This document shows positions 16,163 to 22,437 of a stretch of 64,000 nt of DNA, in pieces (the first letter of the stretch is position 1; each line of letters begins with the position of its first letter). Source of the stretch: Verrucomicrobiota bacterium (GTDB lineage Bacteria > Verrucomicrobiota > Verrucomicrobiia > Limisphaerales > JAXMHQ01); the NCBI GenBank assembly GCA_046346665.1, contig JAXMHQ010000011.1, positions 55,147-119,146 on the forward strand, read 5' to 3'. The notes beneath the pieces are model-generated. The model was not told where the DNA came from, searched no databases, and saw only the letters and a list, made by a program, of their open reading frames with translations. The translations under genes were made by a program, and so were the position numbers.

Positions 16163-19100
16163 ATGTCGAAATCGTCACCGCCGCCCGCCATTCGGCTCCG
16201 CGGCGTTCGCCAGAATAACCTGAAGGGATTCGACCTGGACCTGCCGCAAAACCAGTTGATCGTCGTCACTGGTTTGAGCGGGTCCGGGAAAAGTTCCCTC
16301 GCCTTCGACACCCTCTTTGCCGAGGGGCAGCGGCGTTACATCGAGACCTTCTCCCCCTACGCCCGGCAGTTCTTCGACCGGATGGACAAGCCCCAGGTGG
16401 ATCGCATCGAGGGAATCCCGCCGGCCATCGCGATCGAACAGCGCAATTCCGTCCGGACGACGCGCTCCACCGTGGGGACGATGACGGAGATTTGCGATTA
16501 CATGAAGGTGCTGTGGCCGCACCTGGCCCGACTTCATTGCCGTTCCTGCGGACGGCCCGTCCGGAAAGAGGCGCCCGGGGATGTTTACGCCCGGTTCGAA
16601 GCCGTCGCCGCCGAAGTCCTGGTTGCCTTCGACCTGCCGTTGTCCGACAAACTGTCCCTGCAGGATTCGCTGGCGCTTGTGGCGAAGCAGGGATATCAAC
16701 GCCTGCTGGTCGACGGCCGGGTGATCCGGCTGGAGGAAGCTGCCGGGGCGCTGTCGAAACCGGACAAACTGCTCACGCTCACCCTGGTCCAGGACAGACT
16801 GCGGGCCGGCAAAGACACGCGCGCCCGGTTCGTCGAGGCTTGCGAGCAGGCTTATCATTTCGGCAAGGGCAAGCTCGCCATCCACACCGCCGACCCTCAG
16901 CAGGCCGGCGCCTGGAAGCTCACGCGACGGTTTTCGAACCGGCTGCATTGCGCCGATTGCGACCTGGATTACCGGGATCCATCCACGGCCTTGTTCAGTT
17001 TCAATCATCCGCTCGGCGCGTGTCCGTCGTGCAAGGGATTCGGCCGGATTATCACAATCGATTTCAACCTGGCGATACCGGACCGATCGCTGACGCTTGC
17101 TGCGGGCGCGGTGAAACCCTGGCGGAGCGGATTCAGCGCGGAATGCCAGAAGGATCTCGCCCGGTTCTGCAAAAAACGGGGCGTGCCCATGGACGTGCCG
17201 TTCAACAGGCTGCCGGCCGCGCAGCAGAAATGGGTGCTGGAAGGCGACGCCGGATACGGCAGCGACAAGGCTCACGAATGGCCGAACGCGTGGTACGGCG
17301 TCCAGGGCTACTTCCGCTGGCTCGAAGGCAAGTCCTACAAAATGCACGTGCGCGTGCTCCTGTCCCGATACCGTTCCTACGTGCCGTGCCCCGACTGCCG
17401 GGGCGCGCGCTTTCAGCCGGACGCGTTGTTGTATCGGCTCGACGGCGCCCCCGAGTCGGGGAAGGGGATGAGCCTGGCCGAGTTTTACCAGTTGCAGGTG
17501 CAGCAGGCGCGGCCGTTGCTGGAGAGTTTTCTGAAATCGCGGCGTTCCCGTTCGTCGTCACCATCCCGCAGCCCCGTGACGCTCGCGCTCGAGGAGGTCG
17601 TGTCGCGGCTGCAGTACCTCGACCAGGTCGGGCTTGGGTATCTCACGCTGGATCGCCCGACCCGCTCGCTCTCGGGCGGCGAGACGGAGCGGGTGAATCT
17701 CACCACCTGCCTCGGTACGCGGCTGGTTCACACGCTGTTCGTGCTCGACGAACCCAGCGTCGGCCTGCACGCGCGCGACACCGAGCGCCTGGTCGAAGTG
17801 CTGCTCCAGTTGCGCTCGGCCGGCAACACCGTCGTCGTGGTCGAACACGAACCCGCCGTCATGCGCGCGGCGGACCAGGTCATCGATCTCGGCCCCGGAC
17901 ACGGCGCTTCCGGCGGGAGCGTGCAATTCCAAGGCGCCTATCCTGAATTGCTGCGATGCGCGGAAAGTCTCACCGGCCAATACCTCTCGGGCCGGCGCCG
18001 GCAGGACCGGCCCCCGCGGCGGTCCGTCGCAGGAAACAAAGTGCCCTGGCTCATCGTGCACGAGGCCACGGCTCATAACCTGAAAGGTTTGCGGGTCGAC
18101 ATTCCCCTGCAGCGGCTGGTCTGTTTGAGCGGCGTCAGCGGCTCCGGCAAATCCACGCTGCTGCGCGATATCTTACTGCCCGCGCTCCAGCAGGCCCTGC
18201 ATTCCACGCCCGATTCGGGCGCGGGTGCGGACGAGGAAACCGATTCTCCCGATCCCGCAACCCCGGTCGTGCCCGCCGCGCGACTGGAAGGGTGCGGGCA
18301 CCTCGCGCGGGCCGTGTGGGTGGACCAGTCCAGTCTCGGCCGCACGCCTCGATCCAACCCGGCGGTGTACATCGGGGCGTTCGAGGAGATCCGGGATGTG
18401 TTCGCGCAGACGGAAGGCGCGCGCCGGCGCGGATTGAACTCGAGCGCGTTCAGCTTCAATTCCGGCCAGGGCCAGTGCGAACGCTGCCGCGGAGCGGGCT
18501 TCGAAAAAATCGAGATGCAATTTCTCAGCGATGTGTTTGTGCGCTGCCCGGAATGCAACGGCCGCCGTTACCGGCCGCACATTCTCGAGGTGAAATTGCG
18601 CGCCGCCGGCCGCGACTGGAGCATCGCCGACCTGCTGGAAAGCACGGTCGACGAGGCGGTCGGGGTGATGGCCGCTTTCGAAGGATCCCGCGCCGCGGCC
18701 CGCGCGCGGCAGAGGCTGGCGCTGCTTCAGGAAGTCGGTTTGGGTTATCTCAGCCTCGGACAACCCGTCAATACGCTGTCGGGTGGCGAAAGCCAGCGGC
18801 TGAAACTTGTGAGGCATCTTGTCGATGCCTCAGTCGAGAGTCGAGAGTCGAGAGTCGAGGGTAGGTTGGTTGCTGGCGCTCGACCTTCGACCCTCGACTC
18901 TCGACCGACCTTGTTCCTGTTCGACGAGCCGACGACGGGCCTGCATTTCGAGGACGTCCGCGTGTTGCTGAAAGTTTTTCAGCGGCTGGTGGACGCCGGG
19001 CATTCGGTCCTGGTGGTGGAGCACAACCTGGACGTGATCCGCGCGGCGGACTGGGTGATCGACCTGGGGCCGGAGGCGGCTGAGCGGGGCGGGACCATTG

Positions 19101-19195
19101 TGGCAGCGGGTCCGCCGGAAGTGATCATGGCGTGTGAAGCGAGCCACACCGGGCGCGCGCTGGGCCGGTCCCGGAGCCGGAAAGGACGCGCATGA
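16163..19195 (+). CDS. uvrA: UvrA-family ABC ATPase, divergent paralog 1 (retains an insertion-domain-sized segment)
   Basis: GLSGSGKSSLAFDTLFAEGQRRYIETFSPYARQF. Zn modules CRSCG, CADCD...CPSCKGFG, CPDCRGARF and CERCRGAG...CPECNGRRY. Two LSGGE signatures and two Walker B motifs (VLDEPSVGLH, LFDEPTTGLH). Confidence 0.9.
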   Translation: MSKSSPPPAIRLRGVRQNNLKGFDLDLPQNQLIVVTGLSGSGKSSLAFDTLFAEGQRRYIETFSPYARQFFDRMDKPQVDRIEGIPPAIAIEQRNSVRTTRSTVGTMTEICDYMKVLWPHLARLHCRSCGRPVRKEAPGDVYARFEAVAAEVLVAFDLPLSDKLSLQDSLALVAKQGYQRLLVDGRVIRLEEAAGALSKPDKLLTLTLVQDRLRAGKDTRARFVEACEQAYHFGKGKLAIHTADPQQAGAWKLTRRFSNRLHCADCDLDYRDPSTALFSFNHPLGACPSCKGFGRIITIDFNLAIPDRSLTLAAGAVKPWRSGFSAECQKDLARFCKKRGVPMDVPFNRLPAAQQKWVLEGDAGYGSDKAHEWPNAWYGVQGYFRWLEGKSYKMHVRVLLSRYRSYVPCPDCRGARFQPDALLYRLDGAPESGKGMSLAEFYQLQVQQARPLLESFLKSRRSRSSSPSRSPVTLALEEVVSRLQYLDQVGLGYLTLDRPTRSLSGGETERVNLTTCLGTRLVHTLFVLDEPSVGLHARDTERLVEVLLQLRSAGNTVVVVEHEPAVMRAADQVIDLGPGHGASGGSVQFQGAYPELLRCAESLTGQYLSGRRRQDRPPRRSVAGNKVPWLIVHEATAHNLKGLRVDIPLQRLVCLSGVSGSGKSTLLRDILLPALQQALHSTPDSGAGADEETDSPDPATPVVPAARLEGCGHLARAVWVDQSSLGRTPRSNPAVYIGAFEEIRDVFAQTEGARRRGLNSSAFSFNSGQGQCERCRGAGFEKIEMQFLSDVFVRCPECNGRRYRPHILEVKLRAAGRDWSIADLLESTVDEAVGVMAAFEGSRAAARARQRLALLQEVGLGYLSLGQPVNTLSGGESQRLKLVRHLVDASVESRESRVEGRLVAGARPSTLDSRPTLFLFDEPTTGLHFEDVRVLLKVFQRLVDAGHSVLVVEHNLDVIRAADWVIDLGPEAAERGGTIVAAGPPEVIMACEASHTGRALGRSRSRKGRA

Positions 19196-21927: not shown

Positions 21928-21945
21928 TGCCCCCGGCGATCCGCC

Positions 21946-22437
21946 GTGCGCGACATGAGCGAGTCGTACGAAGAGATGCTGGAAGGAGAGAGGCTGATCC
22001 GCCGTCCGCCCGGCGCGCGGCACGAATTGATTTGCCGCCGCCTGTACGCGTGCGTGCTGGCCAGCGTGGCCAATTTCACCAGCACCCGGCTGTTGCCCGT
22101 GCGGTCGGAAGTGATCCTCGCCGCCGGGACGCGATTGCGTCCCGACCTCGCGCTGGTGGCTGAGCCGACCGGCAAACTCTGGCTCGCCGCCGAAGTGGTC
22201 AGCTCCGACGATCACCGCGTCGACACCGTGGTCAAAAAGGAGATTTACGAATCCACGAGGCTGCCGCGGTTGTGGATGGTGGATCCCCGTTATGACAACG
22301 TGGAGATCTACCATGGCACCGCGCACGGCCTCGTGTTGAAAGGCATTCTCGCCGGGCGCGAAACCCTCACCGAAAAGCTCCTGCCCGAGTTCGAACTCGC
22401 GATTTCGGAATTGTTCAAACCACCGGATCCCGCCTGA
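21946..22437 (+). CDS. Uma2-family (DUF820) PD-(D/E)xK nuclease-like protein
   Basis: GTG 21946 or ATG 21955, 19-28 nt after uvrA paralog 2. Pattern RPDLALV ... AAEVVSS ... VKKEIYESTRLPRLWMVDP matches the Uma2 D...E-x-x-S...K core. Confidence 0.75.
   Translation: MRDMSESYEEMLEGERLIRRPPGARHELICRRLYACVLASVANFTSTRLLPVRSEVILAAGTRLRPDLALVAEPTGKLWLAAEVVSSDDHRVDTVVKKEIYESTRLPRLWMVDPRYDNVEIYHGTAHGLVLKGILAGRETLTEKLLPEFELAISELFKPPDPA

Follow-up and report, generated by a model that had tools for sequence, protein, structure and literature searches.

Introduction

Canonical class I UvrA is a symmetric homodimer whose two insertion domains clamp DNA, and because it is a homodimer its protomers and its four ATPase sites cannot be mutated singly, which limits work on damage sensing and on UvrB strand loading. 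The class II UvrAs (Deinococcus radiodurans UvrA2, PDB 2vf7; Ecm16, PDB 7sh1; DrrC) are homodimers as well. [quoted passage not shown] In the present work, a stretch of 64,000 nucleotides from Verrucomicrobiota bacterium (contig JAXMHQ010000011.1, positions 55,147 to 119,146 of the forward strand), hereafter the window, was analysed around three consecutive genes encoding two UvrA-family proteins, named P1 and P2, and a Uma2 (DUF820) protein. With a probability of roughly 0.78, P1 and P2 are the separated N and C halves of a widespread fused double-length UvrA, that is, a new split form of a known fused kind.

Compared with the Ralstonia-type double UvrA, P1 corresponds to the N half (46% identity) and P2 to the C half (49%), and the pair shares with it an insertion domain found in the N half only, four intact ATPase sites and a congruent phylogeny. 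It differs in being made of separate genes with a 4-nt overlap and in having Uma2 after them, whereas the fused loci examined have none. With canonical class I UvrA (E. coli b4058; PDB 2r6f, 3pih, 3zqj, 9gxk), both proteins share the fold, the motifs, the three zinc modules and the UvrB-binding domain, but the insertion domain is shared with P1 only. The class II proteins are accessory paralogs that likewise have a modified domain complement, but they drop the UvrB-binding domain, whereas P2 drops the insertion domain and keeps the UvrB-binding one. An initial annotation of this DNA, made from the sequence alone, had known of no described uvrA-uvrA-Uma2 system. This stands for the split form and for its coupling to Uma2 but has to be narrowed as regards the pair itself, since fused double UvrAs are known (PMC8567305). 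The searchable literature appears to hold no description of the split state, of the asymmetry that comes with a single insertion domain or of a translational coupling of Uma2 to a uvrA-type gene.

P1 and P2 as divergent members of the UvrA family

Both P1 and P2 passed the TIGR00630 uvrA cutoff of 729.8 bits (909.4 and 973.3 bits respectively), and both missed the 1147-bit equivalog cutoff of NF001503, the stricter NCBIfam model of canonical class I UvrA (921.6 and 1002.1 bits). Each protein has two complete ATP-binding cassette (ABC) ATPase modules and three zinc modules (Zn1 to Zn3, paired CxxC motifs), and neither lacks any of the eight motif sets (Walker A, LSGGE, Walker B and H-loop). In nucleotide-binding domain II of P2, Walker B reads ILEEP, with a D to E change (residues about 837-843, window positions 21700-21720). 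Among PDB structures, class I UvrAs were the best matches for both proteins, with up to 712 bits for P1 and 809 bits for P2, and the class II structures 2vf7 and 7sh1 scored well below them.

The two proteins differ in their domain complement (Table 1). In P1, about 118 residues separate C287-C290 from C409-C412, which indicates the presence of an insertion domain and, together with the PF17755 match, bears out the insertion-domain-sized segment that had been noticed between its zinc modules. In P2, the Zn2 motifs C292-C295 and C332-C335 are 36 residues apart, and the Pfam profile search gave no match of P2 to the PF17755 insertion domain; the collapse of this domain had thus been recognised correctly in the initial annotation, its remaining length being 36 residues instead of the ~25 aa proposed. 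Expressed as Zn2 CxxC spacing, the values are 122 for P1 and 40 for P2, compared with 129-130 for the UvrAs of E. coli and M. tuberculosis. The UvrB-binding-domain-like segment of P1 is of normal size and divergent: it is 23% identical to that of canonical UvrA, and identity inside the N group is 36%. PF17760 (gathering threshold 23.3) matched it at 38.8 bits over profile positions 30-108 and matched P2 at 57.3 bits over positions 1-85 of 109, and the UvrB-binding domain of P2 is nearer to the canonical one than that of P1. The divergent motif MTEICDYMKVLWPHLARLH of P1, which had been contrasted with ITEIHDYLRLLFARVG of E. coli, was quoted accurately.

P1 and P2 match the halves of fused double-length UvrAs

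The database relatives of P1 are of two kinds, Verrucomicrobia proteins of ~1000-1100 aa (61-67% identity) and fusions of ~1750 aa in which a P1-like part is followed by a P2-like part, and the relatives of P2 give the mirror picture. One close-relative fusion (P0002) is 60% identical to P1 and 67% identical to P2. A scan of one genome per species, BLASTed with P1, P2 and Uma2, yielded 80 loci. The genes are split in the 16 closest of them (Verrucomicrobia, 56-68% identity), while a single fused N-C reading frame of 1607-2107 codons from stop to stop is present in 60; in one further locus (L039) the fused gene lies in two overlapping frames and the remaining three are contig fragments. Loci of the fused type belong to Chthoniobacterales, Verrucomicrobiales, Kiritimatiellia, Victivallales, Nitrospinota, many Gammaproteobacteria and Betaproteobacteria, and others, with Thiocystis violacea, Marinimicrobium, Gilvimarinus, Caballeronia telluris and Rhizobacter as proteobacterial examples. 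Overall, fused double UvrAs of ~1750-2000 aa range over Verrucomicrobia, Proteobacteria, Desulfobacterota, Nitrospinota and Lentisphaerae. A gene from the unannotated record of Cupriavidus sp. EM10, lying in two frames, probably through a frameshift, was left out of the analysis.

A neighbour-joining tree of P1, P2, N halves, C halves and canonical UvrA was built from 823 well-aligned columns with 200 bootstraps, the canonical references being those of E. coli, M. tuberculosis and G. stearothermophilus (the latter two transcribed from HMMER alignments). P1 with the N halves, P2 with the C halves and canonical UvrA were each separated in 200/200 bootstraps. In its core, P1 is 56% identical to the N halves, against 44% for canonical UvrA and 42% for the C halves; the core of P2 is 60% identical to the C halves, against 49% for canonical UvrA and 42% for the N halves. 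The N and C subtrees are congruent, the split Verrucomicrobia genes being in both of them sister to the fused genes of Chthoniobacterales and Verrucomicrobiales. The N-half and C-half distance matrices of 53 taxa are correlated with r = 0.983, a value reached by none of 999 permutations.

In the C-half tree, split genes of the close clade alternate with in-frame fusions (P0002, P0003, P0006 and P0122-P0125), whose linkers measure 17-90 residues and which are 59-72% identical to the window proteins. Some of the fused or split calls in metagenomes are possibly artefacts of assembly or gene calling; several independent clusters with different linkers agree. Judged from these sequences, the fused and split states are interchangeable. 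This pattern of fusion and fission provides a Rosetta-stone argument for a 1:1 complex of P1 and P2 equivalent to a UvrA dimer. An obligate heterodimer had been suggested from the coupled pair, and the idea gained support from the one-to-one match of P1 and P2 to the halves of single-chain double UvrAs and from the alternation of fused and split forms among close relatives.

The junction between the split genes varies among loci. The two genes overlap by 4 nt in the window and L007 and by 8 nt in L002 and L116; a spacer of a few nt separates them in L105 and a small inserted ORF (open reading frame) in L088 and L104, and in L018 the order is reversed, P2 coming before P1. The inserted ORF (L088 ~3306-4320, L104 ~4082-4300), whose ATG overlaps the P1 stop codon, starts with MKKV.GIALLVGGIIA, which looks like a signal peptide or a transmembrane segment.

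Anatomy of the double UvrA family

The ATPase motifs are conserved throughout the family, since each of the two modules keeps its Walker A, LSGGE, Walker B and H-loop across 54 N halves and 66 C halves, with the exceptions of one N half without a match to the second Walker A and one C half without a match to the second H-loop. Only one deviation recurs: the second-module Walker B reads LEEP instead of LDEP in 24 of the 66 C halves, all from Verrucomicrobia and P2 among them; this D-to-E change is conservative and lineage-specific and might tune the ATPase site concerned. In the N halves the Zn2 spacing lies between 115 and 124 (median 118, n=54), in the C halves between 23 and 52 (median 39, n=65), while a region of the size of the UvrB-binding domain is retained in N and C halves alike. 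Taken together, Zn2 spacing and motif conservation indicate that the unit always has four ATPase sites and a single insertion domain.

The extent of the family was estimated by a HMMER scan of 1.84 billion representatives, in which 8759 UvrA-like clusters (cluster unit 50% identity) were found at E <= 1e-30 and the top 150 (P0241-P0390) were classified by best hit. These 150 are mostly double-length and include at least 49 of the N-C type, at least 61 other doubles with both halves canonical-like (K-K) and 14 short N-type clusters. The presence of both N-C and K-K doubles suggests that tandem fusion of UvrA arose more than once, and the N-C type is, on these profile matches, a large family present in several phyla. 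NCBIfam also holds a double-length UvrA model of 1809 positions, NF001885, which we take to represent Chlamydia UvrA; the 1809-aa protein P0283 was considered as the protein behind this model and rejected, as it scored 1000 bits against a cutoff of 3054. A set of doubles of ~1570-1680 aa aligns only from about residue 275 of P1 and seems to have no UvrB-binding region.

The Uma2 gene and its linkage to P2

To our knowledge, no member of the Uma2/DUF820 family has a demonstrated function. The third gene of the window matched PF05685 at 56.1 bits (gathering threshold 27, E = 4e-15), and its AlphaFold model (pLDDT 87.5) gave query-normalised TM scores (TMq) of 0.75-0.85 over the Uma2 structures 6okh, 9y1l, 3ot2 and 1wdj, with 0.85 to 6okh and 0.78 to 9y1l; all four are structural-genomics entries of unknown function. 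H23, D64 (of PD), E80 (of E-V-V-S), K94 and K95 do not vary in an alignment of 30 sequences, and across 89 orthologs their conservation is at least 98%; in 9y1l their counterparts are the PD, E-x-x-S and K positions. The protein therefore shares with the Uma2/DUF820/TT1808 family both the fold and the His, PD, E-x-x-S and K residues, and the D...E...K alignment that had been called for in the initial annotation finds D64, E80 and K94 present and conserved. By its alignment and predicted fold it is a bona fide Uma2/DUF820 member with putative catalytic residues intact.

Viewed from P2, 8 of 15 informative split-clade genome loci and none of the fused loci have Uma2 directly downstream. Viewed from Uma2, a metagenome scan gave 75 informative loci with orthologs of 60-70% identity, in 36 of which the P2 C-terminus is immediately 5' of the gene. 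The linked P2-Uma2 junctions are 4-nt overlaps in 32 of 44 cases, which makes the 27-nt gap of the window (18 nt if the alternative GTG is the start) atypical; the position of Uma2 behind P2 was as initially annotated, the offset of 19-28 nt given for it being replaced by these values. The order P1-P2-Uma2 recurs in L002, L003, L007, L008 and several metagenome contigs. Unlinked Uma2 copies lie in another conserved housekeeping context with trmD, rplS, DUF6370 and a His_biosynth gene, and the order trmD, P1-P2, Uma2 in L003 suggests a rearrangement within one neighbourhood. Linked and unlinked orthologs are not deeply separated, even though the nearest neighbour has the same context in 75 of 84 cases. 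A functional partnership between P1/P2 and Uma2 is possible.

Organisation of the locus

Table 1. Coordinates of the P1-P2-Uma2 locus within the 64,000-nt window.
Feature	Position	Strand	Basis	Remarks
P1, UvrA-family gene, N-half type of double UvrA, 1010 aa	16163..19195	+	translation, TIGR00630, tree	start ATG 16163, stop TGA 19193-19195; frame open from TTG 16151 (ORF listing, translation)
P1 UvrB-binding-domain-like segment, residues 130-262	16550..16948	+	between Zn1 CRSC (126-129) and CADC (263-266)	
P1 insertion (DNA-binding) domain, residues 291-408	17033..17386	+	between Zn2 CPSC and CPDC; PF17755 48.6 bits	
ATGA stop/start overlap of P1 and P2, translational coupling	19192..19195	+	sequence	
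P2, UvrA-family gene, C-half type of double UvrA, 911 aa	19192..21927	+	translation, TIGR00630, tree	start ATG 19192, stop TGA 21925-21927 (ORF listing, translation)
P2 UvrB-binding domain, residues 122-267	19555..19992	+	between Zn1 CPDC and CPDC; PF17760	
P2 36-residue stub replacing the insertion domain, residues 296-331	20077..20184	+	between Zn2 CPRC and CPDC	
Uma2 (DUF820) PD-(D/E)xK-fold gene, 160 aa	21955..22437	+	PF05685, alignments, AlphaFold model	start ATG 21955, alternative GTG 21946
Perfect palindrome, 29-nt arms, 4-nt loop, flanked by an A-run and a T-run	22523..22585	.	hairpin scan	

The two complete UvrA-family genes and their ATGA overlap, as initially annotated, were confirmed by the ORF listing and translation, and an AAGGA-like Shine-Dalgarno sequence, GGAAAGGA, is located 7 nt 5' of the P2 ATG. 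The palindrome, which is unique in the window and sits between Uma2 and a gene for a 2467-aa protein, looks like a bidirectional intrinsic terminator closing the P1-P2-Uma2 unit, and the hairpin scan of the unit found no comparable hairpin between P1, P2 and Uma2. With a single strong terminator-like hairpin placed after Uma2, the three genes look like one transcription unit.

A sigma-70 promoter scan upstream of P1 gave nothing above chance. Two tandem repeats, the AT-rich 8-mer ATGGATTA x3.8 (15989-16018) and TCGTCC x4.5 (16042-16068), lie in the intergenic region 5' of P1, which may be a regulator-binding array or a promoter region. The LexA box of Verrucomicrobia is TGTTC-N4-GAACA (PMC4951493), and a scan for it allowing up to 2 mismatches gave 18 matches, with ~20 expected by chance.

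The neighbourhood of the three genes is ordinary chromosomal DNA, with a flat GC content (0.62-0.65 over the locus). Upstream are genes for a sigma-54 activator, a nitroreductase, a pirin and YceI; downstream is the 2467-aa secreted protein and, farther off, a sulfatase, a glycoside hydrolase family 48 (GH48) cellulase, an S8 peptidase and an ammonium transporter. No mobile-element or biosynthetic genes were found in the 64-kb window. Two window ORFs considered for their uvrB/uvrC-like size (673 aa and 614 aa) turned out to encode an NHL-repeat protein and a sulfatase.

Alternative explanations

Several observations weigh against a P1-P2 double UvrA acting together with Uma2. P1 is absent within ~7 kb of P2 in 9 of the 14 informative split-clade genome loci, and one locus (L001) carries a lone P1-like gene, so that physical linkage of the two is not required. 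The tree holds three canonical references and no class II protein, and no published biochemistry on any member of the N-C family was found in the searchable literature. The 64-kb window, which is part of a 121-kb contig of a metagenome-assembled genome, contains neither uvrB nor uvrC, and the promoter region upstream of the operon has no LexA box. As for Uma2, it is downstream of no fused double UvrA examined, no uvrA is nearby in the other 39 of the 75 informative loci, and in L133 it lies near trmD and rplS. With about half of the orthologs linked and half elsewhere, Uma2 is a conserved chromosomal gene of this clade that is in many cases, though not of necessity, translationally coupled to P2, and it may be functionally independent of P1/P2. 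The link to Uma2 put forward initially was therefore upheld as a recurrent arrangement, mostly with a 4-nt overlap, and weakened by the orthologs situated away from uvrA and by its absence behind fused genes.

The role of the pair is a matter apart from its origin. P1 and P2 could be the organism's housekeeping UvrA and the sole sensor for UvrB/UvrC, that is, a double UvrA inherited within the Planctomycetes-Verrucomicrobia-Chlamydiae (PVC) superphylum and split here, with Uma2 as a passenger; this explanation is compatible with the heterodimer model, from which it differs only on role and on Uma2, and its chance is estimated as slightly below one in two. It is favoured by the split genes being 60-73% identical over many Verrucomicrobia metagenome-assembled genomes in ordinary chromosomal contexts, by the existence of the double-length model NF001885, by the retention of the UvrB-binding domain (PF17760) and by the frequent location of Uma2 orthologs elsewhere. 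Since the Verrucomicrobia belong to this same superphylum, the pair may be the only UvrA of the cell, for which the odds are roughly even. On the other hand, Ralstonia and Cupriavidus have uvrA_2/uvrA2 as a second copy on a secondary replicon beside canonical uvrA, as with Cupriavidus metallidurans uvrA2 (Rmet_4549, double length unconfirmed), which is on CHR2 beside a full uvrABCD set (PMC2864759). The N-C family is consequently not intrinsically housekeeping, and the 4-nt overlaps of most linked P2-Uma2 junctions argue against Uma2 being a mere passenger. It is improbable that P1 and P2 are instead independent homodimeric paralogs, one housekeeping and one specialised, sharing an operon. Their lack of linkage in many relatives and the full class I domain set of P1, not found in P2, would agree with this, but P1 and P2 correspond to halves of one fused family with congruent trees (r = 0.98), there are fusions 60-70% identical to the window proteins, both proteins score below the canonical equivalog cutoff, and each is nearer to its own fused-half group than to canonical UvrA (56% versus 44% for P1, 60% versus 49% for P2).

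Two further roles had been evoked by analogy in the initial annotation, and neither was retained. An anti-phage or foreign-DNA defence module, with an ABC-ATPase sensor and a nuclease effector, is very unlikely, even if sensor-plus-nuclease logic is common in defence systems, the P2-Uma2 pair is tightly coupled in translation in relatives, and PADLOC matched P1 and P2 to mad3/mad8 and Uma2 to PDC-S03 (47.8 bits), a candidate single-gene system. The mad3/mad8 matches are generic because E. coli UvrA scores higher (342 bits for mad3 and 124 bits for mad8, above P1 and P2), and the 64-kb window showed neither further MADS components nor mobile or defence genes nearby. Moreover, the genes are inherited vertically and congruently and do not have the patchy distribution of an island, GC content does not change over the locus, the unlinked Uma2 orthologs accompany trmD and rplS, and the neighbours are of an ordinary kind (nitroreductase, pirin, YceI, secreted enzymes). 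The least likely of all the explanations considered, with hardly any probability left to it, is a self-resistance factor against drugs or intercalators of the class II type (DrrC, Ecm16). Class IIa UvrA paralogs do confer resistance to DNA-binding antibiotics without UvrB/UvrC (PMC9328131). However, the UvrB-binding domain and the first zinc finger, which are missing from class II proteins, are both kept by P1 and P2, each having a PF17760-matching segment of 130-150 residues between two CxxC motifs; the loss that defines class II has thus not taken place in either of them. In addition, there is no biosynthetic cluster nearby, and 2vf7 and 7sh1 score well below the class I structures.

Proposed assembly and function

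With P1 and P2 taken as the halves of a double UvrA, an asymmetric P1:P2 heterodimer is predicted, and this prediction is well supported. The two proteins would be co-transcribed and translationally coupled and would assemble into a 1:1 heterodimer in place of the usual UvrA homodimer. Such a heterodimer would have four competent ATPase sites, six zinc modules, one insertion (DNA-clamping) domain, contributed by P1, and two non-equivalent UvrB-binding-type domains, that of P2 close to canonical and that of P1 divergent. One insertion domain per dimer would make it structurally asymmetric. By analogy with UvrA, the complex would scan duplex DNA for distortions in an ATP-dependent manner, so that DNA-damage sensing followed by hand-off of the site to UvrB is probably its function. 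Uma2 would be co-expressed with the pair in this lineage, and a role for it as an accessory nuclease on the flagged DNA is speculative.

A bolder version of this scheme, in which the asymmetric P1:P2 complex spots a lesion or abnormal DNA and recruits or activates Uma2 instead of or besides UvrB/UvrC, is unlikely. If true, such a sense-and-cut module would give the Uma2 family its first function and represent a new excision route. The 4-nt coupling of Uma2 to P2 offers in any case a testable lead for the function of the widespread and uncharacterised Uma2/DUF820 nucleases. For UvrA itself, a naturally asymmetric dimer, encoded here by two genes, would allow each protomer, ATPase site, insertion domain and UvrB-binding-type domain to be altered separately.

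Other observations

Just 5' of the lone P1-like gene of L001, at 6940-7877, lie a RES/Xre (MbcA/ParS-type) toxin-antitoxin pair and an N6_N4 methyltransferase. In the window, a cyclic di-AMP riboswitch (RF00379) was found at 2592-2748 on the plus strand with 51 bits (gathering threshold 38), directly 5' of the gene at 2824-4635, which encodes an amino-acid permease fused to a universal stress protein domain. The GH48 cellulase gene, at 49875-52958 on the minus strand, matched PF02011 at 984 bits and also encodes CBM2 and Calx-beta domains. Near it are the sulfatase, the S8 peptidase with PKD domains, a 1370-aa LamG/Ig protein and the 2467-aa protein, which has PPC domains, and this region is rich in secreted polymer-degrading genes.

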